Positions 1 to 17,474 of a stretch of DNA of 21,069 bases are shown piece by piece. A program made the translations under genes and the position numbers. The notes below the pieces were generated by a model, which was not told where the DNA came from, did no database searches, and saw only the letters and a program-made list of their open reading frames with translations. The stretch lies in the sequence record SRR22947725_485; one strand, given 5' to 3'. The stretch's first letter is position 1. Each line of letters starts with the position of its first letter.

Positions 1-1334
1 CAATTAGGAGAGCTCTTGATGAGGGTGCTGACATCATTATTACCGGAAGATGTGTTGATAGTGCTGTAACTTTAGGTCCATTAATGTATGAGTTTGGATG
101 GAAATCAACAGACTATGACCTGCTTGCTGCCGGTAGTTTAGCTGGTCACATTATTGAATGTGGAGCTCAATGCAACGGAGGTAATTTTACAGATTGGCAT
201 TTAGTTAAAGATTTTGATAACATTGGCTTTCCAATAATTGAAGTAGTTTCAAATGGAGATTTTACAGTTTCTAAACCTGAAAATACTGGGGGCCTTATAT
301 CATTTGGAACCGTAGCAGAACAGTTTTTATATGAAATAGGAGACCCAGGATCATACATTTTACCTGATGTTGTTTGTGACTTCAGAGATGTAACAATTAA
401 AGAAATTGAGAAAGATAAAGTCTTTGTTAGTGGAGCTATAGGTAAGCCACCAACAGAAACATATAAAGTTTCAGCAACATATCTTAATGGATATAGAACC
501 CAAGCATCTGTTGTAATAGGTGGAATCAATGCAGCTCAAAAAGCAAAAATAACCGCTGATGCAATTCTTAAGAAGGTATCAAGGATGTTAAAAGATAGCG
601 GTATGCAAGATTTTTCAGATAAAAAAGTATCAATTATTGGTACCGAAGCAATGTATGGAAATAATTCTCAACAACTAAATACTAGAGAAGTTTTATTGAG
701 AATAATAGCTACTCATTCACAAAAAGAGGCATTAGTTTTGCTATCTAGAGAAATTGCTCAAGGTTCAACTGGAATGACTCCAGGGTTTATAAATATGCTT
801 GGAGCCAGACCTTCAGTATCTCCGTCAATAAAACTATTTTCATTTCTTTTATTGAAAAAAGAAGTAAACATATCAGTTGAAATTGATAATAATAATATGG
901 AAATACTTATTGATAATAATTATGACGATCATGTTGAATTAACAAAGGAAATTGTTCATAGTTCATTAGATAATAAATCACTTACAAATGAGGTGCCTTT
1001 ATATAAACTCGCTTTTGCAAGAAGTGGAGATAAGGGAGATCATTGTAATATTGGAGTTATTTCAAGAAAGCCTGAATATTTTTCATTTATAAAAAATTAT
1101 TTAACAAATCAGGTTGTTAAAAATTATTTTTCTCATGTTGCAAAAGGTGATGTGCATTGCTGGGAAGTTCCAGGAATCTGTGGACTTAATTTTTTATTGA
1201 AGCACTCATTGGGAGGAGGAGGTATGGCTAGCCTTAACATTGATTCACAAGGAAAGGCATATGCCCAACAGCTTCTAGATATAAAGGTTCCAGTATCAAA
1301 AGAAATATATAATGAGTTATTAAAGAGGAAATAA
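1..1334 (+). CDS. atuA: Acyclic terpene utilisation AtuA-family protein (DUF1446), 5'-truncated by the window edge
   Basis: The frame is open from base 3 (IRRALDEGADIIITGRCVDSAVTLGPL) into the 84..1334 ORF. AtuA-like motifs: GADIIITGRCVDSA, LAAGSLAGHIIECGAQCNGGNF, EQFLYEIGDP, C-terminal ARSGDKGD and LGGGG. Directly upstream of atuC/E/D-like genes. Confidence 0.9.
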   Translation, partial: IRRALDEGADIIITGRCVDSAVTLGPLMYEFGWKSTDYDLLAAGSLAGHIIECGAQCNGGNFTDWHLVKDFDNIGFPIIEVVSNGDFTVSKPENTGGLISFGTVAEQFLYEIGDPGSYILPDVVCDFRDVTIKEIEKDKVFVSGAIGKPPTETYKVSATYLNGYRTQASVVIGGINAAQKAKITADAILKKVSRMLKDSGMQDFSDKKVSIIGTEAMYGNNSQQLNTREVLLRIIATHSQKEALVLLSREIAQGSTGMTPGFINMLGARPSVSPSIKLFSFLLLKKEVNISVEIDNNNMEILIDNNYDDHVELTKEIVHSSLDNKSLTNEVPLYKLAFARSGDKGDHCNIGVISRKPEYFSFIKNYLTNQVVKNYFSHVAKGDVHCWEVPGICGLNFLLKHSLGGGGMASLNIDSQGKAYAQQLLDIKVPVSKEIYNELLKRK

Positions 1335-1335
1335 T

Positions 1336-2961
1336 ATGTCAAAAGAATTCAAATCTAAAATTGATGTTCAATCAGAAAGTTTTTTAAAAAATCGTGCAGA
1401 GATGCTTAAAAAAATTAAAGAAATGCGAAATTTAGAAAAAAGAAGCTTTAATGCATCTGAAAGTAAAAGAAAAAAATTTGAAGATAGAAATCAACTTACT
1501 CCCAGAGAAAGATTGAATGCTCTAATTGACCCCGATTCAGAATTTATAGAACTATATAATATGGCTGGATTTTTAGTTGAAGATAATAATCCTGAAACCA
1601 GCATTCCTGGTGCAAGCGTAATAGCAGGAATAGGATTTATTAAAGGTGTTAGATGTATGATTATGGTTGACGACAGTGGAATAAATGCAGGTGCAGCGAC
1701 TAGCACAACTGTAGATAAATGTGTCGGGTGTTTAGAAATTTCTCTTGAAAAGAAATTACCATTTGTTCACTTAGTTGAAAGTGCTGGTATTAATCTTATG
1801 AATTATAAAGTTGAAATTTGGGCAAGAGCAGGAGGAATGTTTGCAGGTTTAGCTAAGTTAAGCGCAGCCGGAGTACCTACGATTACTATTTTACATGGTC
1901 TTTCGACTGCAGGTGGAGCTTATAATGTCGGTATGAGTGACTATGTAATTGGAGTTAAGAAAAATGGAATGGCTGCTTTAGCTGGCCCAGCTTTATTAAA
2001 GGCTGCAACAAATGAAGTTGCATCAAATAAAGAGTTGGGTGGTTCTGAAATGCACGCTACAGTATCAGGATTGGTTGAATATCTTGCTGAAGATGATTCA
2101 GATGCTATTGACATCGCAAGAAATGTTGTTAACGCTTTAGATTGGAATTCTGGGTTTTCAACTATAAAGGATAATGATTATATAGAACCGAAGTATGATA
2201 TCGATGAAATAGCCGGTATAGTGAATTTAGATTATAAAAAACCATATGATGCGAGAGAGATAATTTTAAGATTAGTTGATGATTCAAGCTTTATAGAATT
2301 TAAACCCAGATATGGTATTACAACTCTTTGCTTTCAGGCTGATATAAATGGAAATTCTTGTGGAATTATTGCTAATAATGGACCTATTGATACAGATGGT
2401 GCAACTAAATCAGCGCAATTTTTTCAGTTATGTGACAAATCTGATATACCTATAATTTTTTTGAATAATGTTACAGGATTTATGGTAGGAAAGAAATATG
2501 AGCAGGCAGGTATGATCAAACACGGTTCAAAAATGATACAAGCTGTTACAAATATTACCGTACCTAAGATTTCGCTTTATGTTGGTGCAAGTTTTGGTGC
2601 AGGTAATTATGGAATGTGTGGCTATGCTTATGATCCAGATTTTTTATTATCATGGCCAAATGCGGTCACGGGAGTAATGGGAGGCCAGCAGGCTGCATCA
2701 ACAATGGCACAAGTTATTGTCGCAGCTGCTAAGAAGCGTGGGGATAGCTTTGACCAAGAACAAATTGATCAAAAACAAAAAGAAATTTCAAAGCATTTTG
2801 ATAATCAATCTAGCGCATTCTACACTTCAGGGAGATTACTAGATATGGGAATAATTGATCCAAGAGAGACTAGAAAGGTTTTAGCCTTTTTACTTCAAAC
2901 TTGTAAGGAGTCAAAAGCTAGAAAATTAAAGTCCAACACTTTTGGCATTGCGAGAATGTAA
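1336..2961 (+). CDS. atuC: Acyl-CoA carboxylase carboxyltransferase (beta) subunit, geranyl-CoA carboxylase AtuC-like
   Basis: 541 aa. QLTPRERLNALIDP, HGLSTAGGAY, LAGPALLKAAT, GFMVGKKYEQAGMIKHGSKMIQAV, SFGAGNYGMCG and C-terminal FGIARM fit the AtuC/MccB family. Context next to atuA favours AtuC. SD-like GAGG upstream. Confidence 0.88.
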   Translation: MSKEFKSKIDVQSESFLKNRAEMLKKIKEMRNLEKRSFNASESKRKKFEDRNQLTPRERLNALIDPDSEFIELYNMAGFLVEDNNPETSIPGASVIAGIGFIKGVRCMIMVDDSGINAGAATSTTVDKCVGCLEISLEKKLPFVHLVESAGINLMNYKVEIWARAGGMFAGLAKLSAAGVPTITILHGLSTAGGAYNVGMSDYVIGVKKNGMAALAGPALLKAATNEVASNKELGGSEMHATVSGLVEYLAEDDSDAIDIARNVVNALDWNSGFSTIKDNDYIEPKYDIDEIAGIVNLDYKKPYDAREIILRLVDDSSFIEFKPRYGITTLCFQADINGNSCGIIANNGPIDTDGATKSAQFFQLCDKSDIPIIFLNNVTGFMVGKKYEQAGMIKHGSKMIQAVTNITVPKISLYVGASFGAGNYGMCGYAYDPDFLLSWPNAVTGVMGGQQAASTMAQVIVAAAKKRGDSFDQEQIDQKQKEISKHFDNQSSAFYTSGRLLDMGIIDPRETRKVLAFLLQTCKESKARKLKSNTFGIARM

Positions 2962-2962
2962 A

Positions 2963-3769
2963 ATGGCAGTAGATAGAAAATTTAATAATATCAGCATTTT
3001 TAATTTTAATGAATCTTGGGTGAATGTCGAATTTAATGATCCTTCATCGAAAAATGCATTGTCAGAAAATATGATAAATGAATTAAATAATTTTCTTGAC
3101 CAAATAGAAAGTAGTGATAAAATAAGAGGTATCTCCTTCAAAGGATCAAATGGAATGTTTTGTTCGGGAGCGAACTTGAAAGAGATTAATGAAATCTTTG
3201 AATCAAGCGACCCCAAAGTTAAAGCCCATGATATTTCAACAAGTATTGGAAAACTTTTAAAAAGAATTCAGTTACTACCGCAGGTAACAATAATGGTTGT
3301 TGAAGGTGCAGCTATGGCTGGTGGTTTCGGAATTATGTGTGCAGGAGATATTTCAATAGTTCATTCTAAAGCCAAATTTTCTTTAACAGAAACTATGATA
3401 GGATTAACGCCAGCACAAATATCTCCTTATGTTATTAAAAAAGCAGGTTTTGCTAACGCAAAAAAATTAATGATAACAGCTGAAAGATTTACTGGAGCTG
3501 AGGCAAAAGAGTACAAACTTGCTGATTATTTATTTAATTCAACGGATGAATTAAATGAAATTGAAAAAAAATTGAAAAAAAAAATTCTTCATTGTGCGCC
3601 AAAAGCGATTATCGAAACAAAAAAAATTCTTGATATAGCATTTGAAAGAATTAATCAAGATTTTATCGATTATGCTAGTAAAAACTTTGTCGATCAGATT
3701 GTTGATGGCGAAGGAAGAGAAGGAATATTATCTTTTGTTGAAAAAAGAGAACCTAATTGGAAAAAGTAA
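2963..3769 (+). CDS. atuE: Enoyl-CoA hydratase/isomerase (crotonase), isohexenylglutaconyl-CoA hydratase AtuE-like
   Basis: Crotonase motifs KNALS, FCSGANL, VEGAAMAGGFG, FSLTETMIGLTPAQISPYV and EGREGILSFVEKREPNW. The ATG at 2963, one base after the atuC stop, is preferred over the track's TTG at 2942. Confidence 0.8.
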   Translation: MAVDRKFNNISIFNFNESWVNVEFNDPSSKNALSENMINELNNFLDQIESSDKIRGISFKGSNGMFCSGANLKEINEIFESSDPKVKAHDISTSIGKLLKRIQLLPQVTIMVVEGAAMAGGFGIMCAGDISIVHSKAKFSLTETMIGLTPAQISPYVIKKAGFANAKKLMITAERFTGAEAKEYKLADYLFNSTDELNEIEKKLKKKILHCAPKAIIETKKILDIAFERINQDFIDYASKNFVDQIVDGEGREGILSFVEKREPNWKK

Positions 3770-3788
3770 AATTAATTAAGGAGATAAA

Positions 3789-4943
3789 ATGAAATTTACT
3801 GATGAGCACCATGCGCTTTATAAAACAGTTAAAGAATTTGGTGAAAAAGAAATTAAACCATTCAATGAAGAATGGGAAAAAGCTGGTATTTATCCTGCTA
3901 AGGAACTTTTTAAAAAAATGGCAGATTTAAACTTACTTGGTATAACAAAAAATCCTAATTACGGTGGAATGGGATTAGATTATTCTTATTCAATAGTATT
4001 TGCTGAAGCATTAGGGCATTCATGTAATGCATCCGTTGTTATGGGTATTGGTGTTCAAACAGATATGGCAACTCCAGCAATAGATAGATATGGTTCAGAT
4101 TTAATTAAAAAAGAATTTTTAGCACCATCAATTTCAGGTGATTATGTTGCATCGGTTGCTGTTAGCGAACCAAATAGTGGTTCGGATGTGGCGTCAATTA
4201 AAACTTCTGCAAAAAAAGATGGAGATGACTACATAATCAATGGACAAAAGATGTGGATTACAAATTCTACACAAGCTAACTATTTTTGTACATTGGTAAA
4301 TACGAGCAATGATCAACCTCATAAAAATAAATCATTAATTGTTATACCTGCTGATACTCCAGGTGTAAGTGTTGGAGAAAAAATAGATAAGATTGGAATG
4401 AGATCTTCAGATACAGCTCCTGTATATTTTGACAATGTAAGAGTGCCTCAATCATTTAGAATTGGTGATGAAGGATTAGGATTTACCATGCAAATGCAAC
4501 AGTTTCAGGAAGAAAGGTTATTCATTGCTGCTTCAACATTAATTGCAACGGAAAATTGTATTACAGATACTATTGAGTACTGTAAAGAAAGAAAAGCTTT
4601 CGGTAAACCTCTATTGGATAACCAGGTAATACACTTTAAGCTAGCAGAACATCAAACAGAGCTAGAATCTTTAAGGGCATTAGTCTACAAAGCTTGTGAT
4701 AGGTTTGTTGATGGTAAAGATGTCACAATGCTTGCATCTATGGCAAAATTAAAAAGCGGGAGATTGATTAGAGAAGTATCGGATTCCTGTCTACAATTTT
4801 GGGGCGGTATGGGATATACAATGGAAAATCCAGTATCTCAGCAATTTAGAGATGGTAGATTACATTCTATTGGCGGTGGATCTGATGAAGTGATGTTACA
4901 AATTATTTCAAAATACATGAACACTCTTCCTAAAAAAAGCTGA
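3789..4943 (+). CDS. atuD: Acyl-CoA dehydrogenase, citronellyl-CoA dehydrogenase AtuD-like
   Basis: 384 aa. GGMGLDYSYSIV, IGVQTDMATPA, AVSEPNSGSDVA, NGQKMWITN, CLQFWGGMGY and SIGGGSDEVML. SD AAGGAG upstream. Lies in an atu cluster. Confidence 0.88.
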   Translation: MKFTDEHHALYKTVKEFGEKEIKPFNEEWEKAGIYPAKELFKKMADLNLLGITKNPNYGGMGLDYSYSIVFAEALGHSCNASVVMGIGVQTDMATPAIDRYGSDLIKKEFLAPSISGDYVASVAVSEPNSGSDVASIKTSAKKDGDDYIINGQKMWITNSTQANYFCTLVNTSNDQPHKNKSLIVIPADTPGVSVGEKIDKIGMRSSDTAPVYFDNVRVPQSFRIGDEGLGFTMQMQQFQEERLFIAASTLIATENCITDTIEYCKERKAFGKPLLDNQVIHFKLAEHQTELESLRALVYKACDRFVDGKDVTMLASMAKLKSGRLIREVSDSCLQFWGGMGYTMENPVSQQFRDGRLHSIGGGSDEVMLQIISKYMNTLPKKS

Positions 4944-11923: not shown

Positions 11924-13717
11924 ATGAGAAGAAAAACTGTAAGTGTAAATGTTGGTATTGTTGATATCGGAAGTAATCATTCTATTAAAACCCAATCTAT
12001 GACTACAGCATCAACCCTTGATACAAATGCTAGTGTTGAAGAAGCTATTAGAATTATTGACGCAGGAGGAAAGCTCGTACGATTTACTGCTCCAAATACA
12101 AAAGAGGCTGAAAATTTAGAAAATATTAAGTCAGCTATAAGAAAAAAAGGATATGAAACTCCTTTTGTTGCCGATATACATTTTGTACCTAAAGCCGCAT
12201 TAGTTGCTGCAAAAATTGTTGAAAAAGTTCGAATCAATCCTGGAAATTACGTTGACACAAAAAGATTTAAAATTGTAGAGTATGATGATGCAACTTATAA
12301 TAAAGAAGTAAAAAAAATTGAAGAAAAGTTTGTTCCTCTTATTGATGTTTGTAAAGAAAATAATACAGCAATGAGAATTGGTACTAATCATGGATCTCTT
12401 TCTGATAGAATTATGAATCGATTTGGAGATACTCCATTAGGCATGGTAGAGTCAGCACTCGAATTCTTAAGGATCTGCAATAAGAATGATTTTGATCAGG
12501 TAGTTTTGTCTATGAAGTCTAGTAATCCACTGATAATGATTCACGCATATCGATTATTAGTACATAAAATGAAATTAGAAGATATGCATTTCCCTCTTCA
12601 CCTTGGAGTAACAGAAGCAGGAGATGGTATTGATGGTAGAATTAAATCTGCATTAGGAATCGGTACATTATTGTCTGAAGGTATAGGAGATACCATTAGA
12701 GTTTCTCTTACAGAGGATCCTGAATTTGAAATTCCTGTTGCAGACAAGATTTTAAAAAAAATTGATGGTCTAGATTCCAAAAATCCAATTGATTATGATG
12801 ACTCTCGTTCAGTCTCATATATGAAAAGATCTACTAACGGTTGTGTTAATATAGGAGCAAATAATGTTCCAGTAGTAATTTCAATTTCTAGTGAGCCTTT
12901 CCAAGACTGTGTACCAGATTATATTTTTAAAAAACAAAATTCTAATATTGAAAAAGGTCAAAAATATATTACTCCTTATGATATATGGATTGAAAGCAAA
13001 AAAACAAATCTGTTTCCCTTTTTTGAATCATTACAGTCTTATAGAAAAGCAGATACTAAATCAGAAGAATTAAATTTTGTACAACTAGATATGAACAGGC
13101 TTACTAACACGATAGTTGGTTCAATGCCATCAAATGTTATTTTTGTATTAAATATCGAAGGATATAGTAGTTATGATATGAAGAAAAGCTTTAATTTTTT
13201 TGAAAAACATAATATTCTTAATCCAGTTATACTTAAAGGCGTTTATGATTCAAAAGATTTTGAAGAAATAGTTGTAGAAAGTTCTATTGATTTTGGATCT
13301 CTTTTATTGGAAGGTTATGGTAATGGTTTATGGGTAGAATCTTTGAATTATTCGGATAAAATTAATGAGCTTAGTTTTTCAATACTTCAAAATACTAGAA
13401 CAAGGATTTTCAAGACTGATTATATTTCATGTCCATCATGTGGAAGAACAAAATTTAATTTACAAGAAACGACGGCACTTGTTAAAAAGTATACTAGTCA
13501 TCTAAAAGGTCTTAAAATATCAGTTATGGGATGTATTGTGAATGGGCCAGGAGAAATGGCAGATGCAGATTATGGTTATGTAGGTTCAGGTATTGGACTA
13601 ATTTCTCTTTACAAAGGTCAGAATGTAGTTAAAAAAAATATTATCAGTGAAAATGCTGTAGATGAGCTAATTGCTTTAATCAAAGACAATAATGATTGGG
13701 TTGAGCCCAAAATTTAA
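11924..13717 (+). CDS. ispG: HMBPP synthase IspG/GcpE, long (three-domain) form
   Basis: QSMT, VADIHF, KVRINPGN, RIGTNHGSLS, PLHLGVTEAG, GIGDTIRVSLTE, plus 4Fe-4S ligand motifs SCPSCGRT and MGCIVNGPGE. 597 aa including a central insert. Confidence 0.96.
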   Translation: MRRKTVSVNVGIVDIGSNHSIKTQSMTTASTLDTNASVEEAIRIIDAGGKLVRFTAPNTKEAENLENIKSAIRKKGYETPFVADIHFVPKAALVAAKIVEKVRINPGNYVDTKRFKIVEYDDATYNKEVKKIEEKFVPLIDVCKENNTAMRIGTNHGSLSDRIMNRFGDTPLGMVESALEFLRICNKNDFDQVVLSMKSSNPLIMIHAYRLLVHKMKLEDMHFPLHLGVTEAGDGIDGRIKSALGIGTLLSEGIGDTIRVSLTEDPEFEIPVADKILKKIDGLDSKNPIDYDDSRSVSYMKRSTNGCVNIGANNVPVVISISSEPFQDCVPDYIFKKQNSNIEKGQKYITPYDIWIESKKTNLFPFFESLQSYRKADTKSEELNFVQLDMNRLTNTIVGSMPSNVIFVLNIEGYSSYDMKKSFNFFEKHNILNPVILKGVYDSKDFEEIVVESSIDFGSLLLEGYGNGLWVESLNYSDKINELSFSILQNTRTRIFKTDYISCPSCGRTKFNLQETTALVKKYTSHLKGLKISVMGCIVNGPGEMADADYGYVGSGIGLISLYKGQNVVKKNIISENAVDELIALIKDNNDWVEPKI

Positions 13718-13798: not shown

Positions 13799-13939
13799 AT
13801 GAAAAAATTAACAACTGGAGCTATGATTGGAATTGGAGTTGGAGTCGGTGTTGCTGTAGGTGTTGCCTTAGATGACTATGCAGTAGGATTTGGTATAGGA
13901 ATCGCCATTGTTATTGTAATGAAATTGATGAGTAAATAA
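13799..13939 (+). CDS. Small glycine-zipper membrane protein (46 aa), not in the ORF track
   Basis: MKKLTTGAMIGIGVGVGVAVGVALDDYAVGFGIGIAIVIVMKLMSK. SD AGGA at 13787-13790. Fills the ispG-mscS gap and stops just before mscS. Two Gly-rich hydrophobic segments joined by a DDY turn, with basic termini. Confidence 0.8.
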   Translation: MKKLTTGAMIGIGVGVGVAVGVALDDYAVGFGIGIAIVIVMKLMSK

Positions 13940-13944
13940 AGTTG

Positions 13945-15006
13945 ATGCAAGATATAATAAATATAATACAAGGAGATAAAGTGACTTTAACTTGGAATTT
14001 GATGCCACTAATAATTGTGGTAGTAGGAACTTTCTTGGGTATTTTATTTAAAAGATACTTATTTAGTAAGCTAAAGAACTTGTCAGATAGCAGTTCATGG
14101 AAAGGCGACGACGTCGTTATTAATGCTATTGATTCTGTTATTGTGTTTTGGTTTTTTCTTGGCTCTCTTTCAGTAGCTTTTAATGATATAAATTTTGGAG
14201 ACCCATATAATGGGTACATTTCAAAAATAATACTTTCTTTTTTAGTCATGTCAATGACTATTACTGCTTCTAGAGTATCATTAGGACTTCTTGATGTTTG
14301 GTCAAAAAATAATAAATCACTTCCATCGACCGGTATTTTTAAGGGTTTAATCAATGCTACTATTTTTTCACTAGGATTTTTATTTGTTTTACAATCATTT
14401 GGAATATCTATTACTCCACTCATCACTGCTTTAGGTGTTGGTGGTTTAGCTGTTTCTCTTGCTTTGAAAGACACTCTTTCAGATTTATTTGGTGGTATTA
14501 ATATCATTTTAAGTAAAACGATGAAAGAAGGAGACTATGTTGAGCTAAGTAATGGATACCAAGGATATGTTAAAAATATTGGATGGAGATATACTACTAT
14601 TCAAGAAAGAGCCAATAATGTAATATCAATTCCAAACTCCGTCCTTTCGGGATCTGTATCAAAAAATTATACTTCAATGGATGCAGCTTTCAGAGTTCCA
14701 ATTCAAATAGGTGTTTCTTATGACAGTGATTTAGATCACGTAGAAAAAGTAGCGTTAGAAGTGGCAGGAAATATTTACGATGAGCTTGACTGTGTCAGCA
14801 AGGATTATAAGCCAACAATTCGATTTAGAGAGTTTGCTGGGTCAAGTATTAATTTCTTTATTTATTTTCAAGGAAAGAAATTTGGAGATCATAATGTTAT
14901 TTTAAATGCATTTATAAAGAAAATTCATAAACGTTTCCAACAAGAAAGTATTGAGATTCCATACCCTATTCGTACAGTAATACATAAAAATGAAGCTAAG
15001 AATTAA
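13945..15006 (+). CDS. mscS: Small-conductance mechanosensitive channel, MscS family
   Basis: TM3 motif ITALGVGGLAVSLALKDTLSDLFGG, EGDYVEL, IGWRYTTI, IPNS, IGVSYDSDL and IEIPYP, with extra N-terminal TM helices. The start is uncertain: ATG 13945, TTG 13942, or an in-frame GTG at 13981 preceded by AGGAG. Confidence 0.9.
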   Translation: MQDIINIIQGDKVTLTWNLMPLIIVVVGTFLGILFKRYLFSKLKNLSDSSSWKGDDVVINAIDSVIVFWFFLGSLSVAFNDINFGDPYNGYISKIILSFLVMSMTITASRVSLGLLDVWSKNNKSLPSTGIFKGLINATIFSLGFLFVLQSFGISITPLITALGVGGLAVSLALKDTLSDLFGGINIILSKTMKEGDYVELSNGYQGYVKNIGWRYTTIQERANNVISIPNSVLSGSVSKNYTSMDAAFRVPIQIGVSYDSDLDHVEKVALEVAGNIYDELDCVSKDYKPTIRFREFAGSSINFFIYFQGKKFGDHNVILNAFIKKIHKRFQQESIEIPYPIRTVIHKNEAKN

Positions 15007-15427
15007 ACCTTTTAACGATAAAGCAAAAGCTTTATATGAAAATCATTCTCATTTCCACTCTGGTGATGCTGGATTAGATTTATTCGTTGTAGATGACCAA
15101 GTTATTCCTGGTAATTCTACTCAACCTATTCATTTGCAGGTTGCGTGTGAAAATTTAGATAATAAGGCATACTACTTATTTCCTAGATCAAGTATTTCTA
15201 AAACTCCTATTCGATTAGCTAATTCTATTGGACTGATTGATGGTGGCTATAGAGGGGAATTGGTAGGAATGGTTGATAATATTTATAGTGAAGATTATCA
15301 TGTTAAAAGCGGAGAAAGATACTTTCAGCTTGTGGCAGTTGATAGTTCACCAATCGAATTTGAACTGGTAGAAGAATTATCAGAATCTAGTAGAGGTGAA
15401 GGCGGCTTTGGGAGTACAGGAAAATAG
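14990..15427 (+). CDS. dut: Trimeric dUTPase
   Basis: All five motifs present: DAGLDL, PRSS, GLIDGGYRGE, GERYFQLV and RGEGGFGSTG. Confidence 0.95.
   Translation: MKLRIKPFNDKAKALYENHSHFHSGDAGLDLFVVDDQVIPGNSTQPIHLQVACENLDNKAYYLFPRSSISKTPIRLANSIGLIDGGYRGELVGMVDNIYSEDYHVKSGERYFQLVAVDSSPIEFELVEELSESSRGEGGFGSTGK

Positions 15428-15538: not shown

Positions 15539-17474
<1,936 letters not shown>

Follow-up and report, generated by a model that had tools for sequence, protein, structure and literature searches.

How does a bacterium come to hold, among its core genes, a dUTPase that looks like that of the malaria parasite? The question is posed by a stretch of DNA of 21,069 nucleotides (nt) from sequence record SRR22947725_485 (hereafter the window, meaning the whole stretch analysed), where a dut gene of this kind overlaps a gene of the mscS mechanosensitive channel family and is followed by groES and groEL. 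An initial annotation, made without database searches, had proposed that the encoded protein is of the Plasmodium, protist and giant-virus type and that it records an inter-domain transfer between a marine bacterial lineage and alveolates or giant viruses. Judging from those of its best relatives that carry a name (Candidatus Neomarinimicrobiota/Marinimicrobia/Fidelibacterota), the window is from a member of the Marinimicrobia (SAR406/Fidelibacterota). We consider it very probable that the dUTPase is native to this phylum, a Plasmodium-type enzyme inherited beside groES-groEL, and that it goes back to an ancient inter-domain exchange, leaning slightly towards bacteria or phages as the source.

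Membership of the trimeric dUTPase family is established by the Pfam model PF00692 (61.1 bits against a gathering score of 22, over profile positions 11-129 of 129), and motifs I-V are all intact in the translation. Table 1 gives their positions, together with residue conservation as measured on a 73-sequence family alignment. Motif I we take, from general dUTPase knowledge, to bind Mg2+ and phosphate; in motif III, Asp84 is presumably catalytic and Tyr87 sugar-discriminating, as in established dUTPase enzymology. The translation begins MKLRIKPFNDKAKALYENHSHFHSGDAGLDLF, has motif II within LFPRSSISKTPIRLANSIGLIDGGYRGE and terminates FELVEELSESSRGEGGFGSTGK, so the three strings that the initial annotation quoted are all found in the open reading frame (ORF). 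The P. falciparum strings that it gave for comparison hold as well: they reappear in the HMMER alignments to 1vyq, 3t64 and 3t60, the P. falciparum dUTPase (PfdUTPase) entries that are the top PDB matches (155.2-155.4 bits, E ~8e-45). A total of 74 distinct PDB sequences were matched, the fourth best being 6mai at 63.8 bits, with E. coli Dut at 61.8. As the alignment shows, some 25 residues are inserted in Plasmodium between motif I and motif II, and the window protein does not have them. The motif II contrast to which attention had been drawn is also real, the window protein having PRSS where canonical Duts from a different family of the same phylum (f6 in our numbering) read RSRSGLALK. Nor is the likeness confined to catalytic motifs, since over 145 aligned columns the window protein is on average 51% identical to the Myzozoan proteins and 34% identical to the canonical Duts of its own phylum. 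On these comparisons, the resemblance to Plasmodium-type dUTPases lies far beyond chance.

At the level of the fold the resemblance is to the same enzyme. An AlphaFold2 monomer model built on the 73-sequence alignment (mean predicted local distance difference test score, pLDDT, 90.1; predicted template modelling score, pTM, 0.84) was searched against the PDB with Foldseek, and ranks 1-18 are all chains of PfdUTPase, the best being 1vyq_A (template modelling score, TM, 0.88/0.91; root mean square deviation, rmsd, 1.1 Å; E 2.8e-17). The dUTPase encoded by African swine fever virus (ASFV) comes next (rmsd ~3.2 Å, TM ~0.74, E ~5e-11), and classical Duts superpose on the model at rmsd 6.8-13.5 Å (E ~1e-8). 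There are 236 fold matches in the PDB at E ≤ 0.001, all of them dUTPases among the matches listed. Residues 131-145 have low pLDDT, which fits a mobile C-terminal arm. Three copies are predicted to form a homotrimer with an interface score (ipSAE) of 0.92 against 0.00 for the best control, although this pass may reflect memory because dUTPase trimers have already been solved; at least 95% of contacts agree between runs and partner pLDDT is at least 87. By way of calibration, 20 of 30 proteins whose solved form is a one-chain pair attained the ipSAE mark, as did 1 of 23 whose solved form is a single chain. Those trimer contacts that are listed as confident stop at residue 119, and residues not listed are no evidence of missing contact.

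The available part of PMC7948977 describes a 'non-classical' class comprising PfdUTPase and ASFV dUTPase, in which the C-terminal strand is not swapped, in contrast to classical Duts, where it is. The same source reports that the active site of ASFV dUTPase is made from two subunits, and that in the 'non-classical' class each of the four residues behind motif IV is Ala, Asp, Gly, Ser or Thr. As predicted from the model, the window protein probably shares this architecture, including the unswapped C-terminus.

Is this an oddity of one genome? In the genome nearest to the window (G001; 83% of sampled words in common, 1.1 Mb, 96% complete), a profile search returned a single PF00692 match, and that protein is identical to the window dUTPase. 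A wider survey took the window protein as query against 201 sampled Marinimicrobia genomes in 30 families, with counts tallied from the resulting table. A match was found in 142 genomes. The Plasmodium-type dut is present in 110 of the 201, spanning 22 of the 30 families and including other orders and classes; 108 of these carriers have full-length genes (at least 150 bits, 53-100% identity) and two have fragments at contig ends. Canonical Duts account for a further 29 genomes, all in families f6 and f16 (42-66 bits, 32-39% identity), while three genomes gave weak matches and 59 gave none with this query. We conclude that the Plasmodium-type dut is native, old and vertically inherited over most of the Marinimicrobia, and that it is not a recent arrival.

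The genomic setting of the gene is consistent with this. We compared 47 close loci, with a Dut at least 82% identical to that of the window (some being the same genome entered twice), and 40 distant loci chosen to represent 21 other families. At all 47 close loci mscS overlaps dut, and at 46 of them groES lies 74-176 nt 3' of dut, the exception having only 64 nt of downstream flank. In the window the 3' end of the MscS-family gene and dut share 17 nt by ORF positions. The overlap, the place before groES and the integration among core genes described in the initial annotation are thus all confirmed. That annotation had also allowed that the contig might prove chimeric at this point; the recurrence of mscS-dut-groES in independent assemblies, among which are single-cell genomes and one-contig genomes, shows that it is not. 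The overlap with mscS is confined to the genus/family of the window (f1), and elsewhere MscS is 28-3237 nt upstream of dut or is not found in the flank. On the downstream side, groES and/or groEL follow on the same strand at 37 of the 40 family-representative loci (within 700 nt at 33), the loci without them being two of f8 and one of f21. In f4 and f11, which are families belonging to other classes, GroEL begins 248-317 nt downstream of dut, and the window GroEL is 65-100% identical to the GroEL downstream of dut at other Marinimicrobia loci. Since dut-groES-groEL is kept across families and classes, the position of the gene predates the divergence of those lineages.

We also asked whether the canonical dut of f6 occupies the equivalent place by groES, as in-situ replacement would have it. 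It does not, its neighbours in G018 being genes for a DUF4349 protein, a low-molecular-weight phosphatase and a nitroreductase. Two loci carry labels at odds with their content. One labelled Flavobacteriaceae bacterium MED851 (L037) has mscS-dut-groES-groEL as in the window genus, with Dut 87% and GroEL 91% identical, and one labelled uncultured Lentisphaeria (L065) has the dut-GroEL spacing and the sequence type of Marinimicrobia family f4; on this evidence, both appear to be Marinimicrobia contigs that were binned under the wrong name.

The relationship of the bacterial genes to those of other carriers was examined phylogenetically. Representatives shorter than 135 amino acids (aa) were left out and a redundancy filter reduced 341 rows to 246. 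A FastTree overview of these 246 rows and a quick IQ-TREE analysis of 121 hand-picked rows both agree in outline with a more careful tree, made from the 121 after removal of 8 (including the long-branch L152) and addition of 9. This tree (122 rows, 145 columns; LG+C20+F+G4 by posterior mean site frequencies, PMSF; supports given as ultrafast bootstrap/SH-like approximate likelihood ratio test, UFBoot/SH-aLRT) was rooted on five canonical Duts of families f6 and f16. It recovers a core family of 111 rows (99/94) with the window inside, a family distinct from the usual bacterial type and common to alveolates and giant viruses, as had been anticipated from the motifs. Within the core family are a bacterial clade (98/81) of 43 Marinimicrobia rows, 7 from the Planctomycetes-Verrucomicrobia-Chlamydiae (PVC) group and 3 unnamed, a Myzozoan clade (98/95) of 18 named and 7 unnamed rows, and a clade of 23 mostly giant-virus rows (94/90). 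Phage-like sequences branch basally, and one of their contigs has a phage clamp loader and an exonuclease next to dut. Over the kept columns, mean identity from Marinimicrobia declines from 65% (PVC) through 52% (Myzozoa), 44% (giant viruses) and 39% (phage-like) to 32% (canonical Duts); over full length the Marinimicrobia-Myzozoa range is 42-62%, and giant-virus sequences average 45% identity among themselves.

A broad, vertically inherited bacterial clade, which the initial annotation had named as a finding that would speak against transfer, is therefore present, yet it lies within a core family common to alveolates and giant viruses. That distribution needs inter-domain transfer, as proposed, but not transfer by this genome or by a narrow lineage, given inheritance across the phylum. 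Bacteria, Myzozoa and one unnamed pair group together with moderate support (91/88), but in an approximately unbiased (AU) test a tree with Myzozoa plus giant viruses set against bacteria plus outgroups is better by 0.57 log-likelihood units (lnL), with p 0.509, so that Myzozoa and giant viruses are not separable as the nearest non-bacterial kin of the Marinimicrobia clade. The PVC sequences form two groups within a Marinimicrobia subgroup of families f7/f14/f17/f25 (95/91), and forcing Marinimicrobia to be monophyletic without them is 52 lnL worse, a marginal rejection (AU p 0.036).

How widely is the type spread outside Marinimicrobia? A search of 1.84 billion cluster representatives returned 87 clusters at E ≤ 1e-30 (50% level) and 3283 at E ≤ 1e-10; most of the 150 representatives listed have PRSS at motif II, many have tails or insertions, and some members of the subfamily are annotated 'hypothetical protein'. 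The named eukaryotes found are all Myzozoa: Plasmodium spp. (on chromosome-sized contigs), Besnoitia, Cystoisospora, Cryptosporidium spp. and Perkinsus marinus, joined by Alphamonas edax, Colpodella angusta and Oxyrrhis marina from EukProt and by MMETSP transcripts. Records of two Cryptosporidium species (C. xiaoi, C. ryanae) are annotated 'deoxyuridinetriphosphatase bacterial origin' and are members of both the core family and the Myzozoan clade. IMG/VR yields at least 550 stretches with an encoded relative; of the 80 that were kept, 27 belong to contigs of giant-virus metagenome-assembled genomes (GVMAG; 33-52% identity). Strings similar to PRSSISKTPL do occur on giant-virus contigs, in line with the suggestion made for giant viruses in the initial annotation. 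Among deposited phage genomes 69 records matched, none of them closely: identity is under 60% throughout and 41% at best. IMG/VR scans with two of the unnamed representatives that branch deeply in the tree (P0185 and P0200) gave nothing closer than 40-56% over partial lengths.

Among prokaryotes, 319 relatives were collected, and the best 80 of these are from Marinimicrobia and from contigs labelled Kiritimatiellales, Pontiella, Verrucomicrobia or Lentisphaeria (61-65% identity). A sample of 251 genomes from the phylum of Pontiella has the type in 14, at 74-90% identity to the Pontiellaceae protein; 116 others have weaker matches of canonical level (89 bits or less) and 121 have none. In three PVC carrier genomes the Plasmodium-type gene is the sole PF00692 gene, and the genes that neighbour dut in Marinimicrobia were found at none of nine PVC loci. 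Poribacteria were considered as a third bacterial phylum and rejected, as P0128 groups with giant-virus contigs at 100/98.

Several individual members of the family merit description. P0128 itself, labelled Candidatus Poribacteria bacterium (contig of at most 73 kb), has as its companions in the tree a GVMAG contig and a viral contig of 158 kb, and by its sequence affinity it is probably a piece of giant-virus DNA that was wrongly binned with a bacterial metagenome-assembled genome (MAG). P0326, on a 31.5-kb contig and labelled as an Ochotona princeps dUTPase-like protein, groups with the coccidians Besnoitia and Cystoisospora (100/96) and is likely, on that placement, to be parasite DNA within a mammalian assembly. 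An MMETSP transcript from a marine protist (P0122, 348 aa) has two complete tandem dUTPase domains of the subfamily joined by a Pro/Glu/Ala-rich linker, the two halves being close relatives of each other in the tree. Finally, a phage-like metagenome contig (L227:7270-8528) has a gene for a Cpn10/GroES-like protein of 173 aa directly upstream of a subfamily dut, with ThyX and RuvC-like resolvase genes close by. This GroES was considered as a host-derived marker and rejected; as it is only 30% identical to that of the window, its adjacency to dut is treated as coincidence.

Taken together, these observations suggest the following account. The window protein would be the housekeeping dUTP diphosphatase of a streamlined Marinimicrobia bacterium, most likely a homotrimer hydrolysing dUTP to dUMP and pyrophosphate, a reaction that would keep uracil out of DNA and supply dTMP synthesis. 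Its architecture would combine the five classical motifs with two traits of the Plasmodium/ASFV-like 'non-classical' subfamily, an added helix segment at the N-terminus and a C-terminal strand predicted not to leave the subunit to which it belongs. Probably, the gene entered, or arose in, an early Marinimicrobia ancestor and has descended vertically next to groES-groEL since, with later passage from Marinimicrobia into a small Kiritimatiellales/Pontiella group. The analysis itself shows the sequence with its motifs, the fold, the distribution, the synteny and the clades; catalysis, trimer function, the non-swapped C-terminus and the direction of transfer we infer.

A number of observations weigh against parts of it. 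The Plasmodium-type dut is absent from eight of the 30 families, of which f6 and f16 carry the canonical Dut elsewhere in the genome and f2, f3, f5, f9 and f20 gave no match with the window protein as query, so the gene may have entered after diversification of the phylum had begun. The short gene tree splits families f10, f15, f18 and f19 and has many open nodes, the bootstrap of the careful tree is not fully settled (correlation 0.984), and the groups for the AU test were chosen after the tree was seen. Scores against the NCBIfam dut models are below the curated cut-offs (TIGR00576, 84.8 against 102.55; NF001862, 81.3 against 103), so the window protein is not classed as a canonical bacterial Dut; dUTPase activity is ascribed to the bacterial members by likeness. 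The unswapped C-terminus is likewise predicted from a monomer model and from likeness to PfdUTPase. In addition, A116-V117-D118-S119 fits the residue set given for the 'non-classical' class in the available part of PMC7948977 at three of four positions, Val belonging to the 'classical' set, with the placement 'behind motif IV' being our own reading.

Five Marinimicrobia genomes that are 96-99% complete (G011, G017 and G023 of f9, G002 of f2, G005 of f5) have no convincing trimeric dUTPase gene by the Pfam model PF00692; a single match exceeds the cut-off of the model, a partial one of 27.7 bits to a 195-aa frame in G005, possibly, on sequence grounds, a dCTP-deaminase-like protein.

The presence of the same subfamily in Myzozoa and in many giant viruses implies at least two ancient inter-domain or virus-cell transfers. 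As Myzozoa and Marinimicrobia both have relatives with canonical Duts (enzymes of human, yeast and plants among the PDB matches, and families f6 and f16), each most likely acquired the type by displacement. A 145-column protein does not settle the direction, and rooting together with one indel character tips the balance slightly towards bacteria or phages as the source. It is quite possible, if short of probable, that the subfamily originated in bacteria or their phages, that a Marinimicrobia-like bacterium or a phage donated the gene to the Myzozoan ancestor, where it replaced the eukaryotic Dut, and that giant viruses gained it from hosts or from bacteria. With canonical Duts as the root, contigs on which phage genes are found (clamp loader, exonuclease) come out at the base, albeit with an open polytomy along the basal backbone and a long outgroup branch (0.76). 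A phage-like contig (ThyX, RuvC-like resolvase, nucleotidyltransferase) has a member inside the bacterial clade, but no relative above 41% identity is known among deposited phage genomes. The tree uniting Myzozoa with giant viruses against bacteria plus outgroups is not worse (AU p 0.51), and there are the two Cryptosporidium records annotated 'bacterial origin'. The indel character is the spacing between motifs I and II, which is 36 residues at 89 of 93 bacterial loci and in all eight canonical Duts, 34-36 in phage-like sequences, and at least 39 in every one of the 17 Myzozoan and 26 GVMAG sequences. This spacing is however homoplastic: of the 133 unnamed representatives for which a spacing was obtained, 23 are at 36 residues or below and lie scattered on the tree, which rules out loop length as a decisive synapomorphy, and the phage pair within the bacterial clade has spacings of 58 and 63. 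As a tentative extension, and one that we think somewhat improbable, the dUTPase of all Myzozoa, the validated antimalarial target PfdUTPase included, would have come from a Marinimicrobia-like bacterium or its phage and taken the place of the older eukaryotic enzyme before apicomplexans, perkinsids and dinoflagellates split, with giant viruses that infect marine protists spreading it widely afterwards; if true, no living cellular source of a malaria drug target would be closer than SAR406 bacteria.

Alternatively, the type may have diversified in giant viruses and their protist hosts and been captured once by an early Marinimicrobia ancestor, replacing a canonical Dut. Viral sequences and unnamed ones, the latter probably from eukaryotes or viruses, do hold most of the sequence diversity, the bacterial clade is single and comparatively shallow, with two phyla among the best 80 of 319 prokaryote loci, and a canonical Dut persists in part of the Marinimicrobia phylum. 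We nonetheless consider such a history unlikely. It needs a return to exactly the loop length of the outgroup, the rooted trees do not place bacteria within the giant-virus clade, and fixation across a phylum of a core gene transferred from a eukaryote to a bacterium is, as a matter of general knowledge, uncommon. That the whole pattern is an artefact, either of a chimeric or contaminated contig or of a composition shared with Plasmodium, whose genomes are A+T rich, we regard as extremely improbable. The window is A+T rich overall (GC content ~0.32) and several public MAG labels in the family are evidently wrong, but GC content is 0.32-0.34 at dut against 0.28-0.37 over the window and is even across the junctions, and the mscS-dut-groES order is repeated in independent assemblies. 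Moreover, the family spans organisms of quite different composition with the 42-62% identity between Marinimicrobia and Myzozoa retained, and the fold matches 1vyq at 1.1 Å.

The remaining genes of the window are core bacterial ones (M19 dipeptidase, SpoU methylase, MurE, MurF, MraY, IspG, HPPK). A cluster of genes for an AtuA-like protein, a carboxyltransferase, an enoyl-CoA hydratase and an acyl-CoA dehydrogenase looks, from its gene content, like a branched-chain or acyclic-terpene acyl-CoA degradation module. IspG/GcpE is of a long form, and its Pfam match falls in two stretches, implying a large internal insertion. An ORF antisense to mscS is probably a chance open frame in A+T-rich DNA. 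Coordinates are collected in Table 1.

Table 1. Features of the window: the dut locus, the motifs of its product and other genes mentioned in the text.
Feature	Position	Strand	Basis and remarks
dut	14990..15427	+	Intact 145-aa ORF; Plasmodium-like ('non-classical') trimeric dUTPase by translation, PF00692, PDB match and fold
Motif I, G25-D-A-G-L-D-L31	15062..15082	+	D26, G28, D30 invariant
Motif II, P65-R-S-S68 (PRSS; canonical Duts RSG)	15182..15193	+	R66, S67, S68 invariant; P65 at least 90% conserved
Motif III, G81-L-I-D-G-G-Y-R-G-E90	15230..15259	+	G81, D84, Y87 invariant
Motif IV, R110-Y-F-Q-L-V115, then A-V-D-S	15317..15334	+	Q113 invariant; R110 conserved in 90% or more
Motif V, R135-G-E-G-G-F-G-S-T-G144 (flexible C-terminal lid)	15392..15421	+	G141, S142 invariant; R135, G136, G139, F140, T143 at least 90% conserved
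mscS-family mechanosensitive channel gene	13942..15006	+	PF00924, PF21082, PF21088
groES	15539..15814	+	PF00166, 111 bits; starts 111 nt 3' of dut
groEL	15828..17474	+	548-aa ORF
Putative acyl-CoA degradation cluster	84..4943	+	
ispG/gcpE, long form	11924..13717	+	597 aa
ORF antisense to mscS	13911..14507	-	198 aa; entirely within mscS

The enzyme class, the Plasmodium enzyme and the split between classical and non-classical forms are already known. We found no paper that ties a Plasmodium-type dUTPase to Marinimicrobia or describes the bacterial clade, and none that states or tests a bacterial origin, whether of the Plasmodium-type dUTPase or of the Cryptosporidium dUTPase in particular, subscription journals being thinly covered in both searches; no dUTPase term was found in PMC545779. 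The 'bacterial origin' label on the Cryptosporidium records shows that annotators had noticed a bacterial affinity, although these annotations name no bacterial lineage. With the present analysis, the 'odd' enzyme of the parasite takes its place in a large marine family, of which SAR406, a Kiritimatiellales group, Myzozoa and giant viruses are carriers. Here, too, is a clear instance in which a xenologue has displaced a housekeeping gene and has then been passed on vertically through most of a bacterial phylum, with secondary transfer from bacterium to bacterium coming afterwards and with phages and giant viruses as plausible carriers. For annotation, it matters that the NCBIfam dut equivalog models place the subfamily under their cut-offs. 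As an antimalarial target PfdUTPase has been studied, and selective inhibitors rely on the way in which it differs from its human counterpart. The compact bacterial orthologues (145 aa, ~50% identical, without the low-complexity insert) are possible surrogates for it in structural and inhibitor work.

Among the known systems, the window protein may first be set beside the canonical bacterial Dut (E. coli, PDB 1dup/1eu5; NF001862). The two belong to the same Pfam family, with five motifs, a trimeric beta-jelly-roll and the same reaction expected, but identity is ~30% (62 bits), motif II is RSG in the one and PRSS in the other, and motif I is preceded by 21 residues in the canonical Dut as against 25 in the window protein. 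The dUTPase of ASFV (E165R; PDB 6ky8, 6lis, 6lj3) is the second-best structural class after PfdUTPase. It is placed with PfdUTPase on a separate branch in the available part of PMC7948977, and PMC3493329, likewise available in part, has the dUTPases of nucleocytoplasmic large DNA viruses (NCLDV) as polyphyletic; the ASFV protein differs from that of the window in being 28-31% identical (53 bits) and in falling outside the sampled PRSSISKTPL core family. PfdUTPase (PDB 1vyq, 2y8c, 3t60, 3t64, 3t6y, 3t70) is of the same subfamily as the window protein, with ~46-52% identity in structural alignments. Common to both are the five motifs, including PRSSISKTP(L/I)RLANSIGLID, an N-terminal Y..NH..H.GD segment and an end of the form FELVEEL..(S/T)SRGEGGFGST. 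The parasite enzyme, at 173 aa, has its low-complexity insertion (~25 residues) between motifs I and II, whereas the window protein does without one at 145 aa and, unlike its Plasmodium counterpart, is encoded by a gene that adjoins groES in an operon-like bacterial setting.

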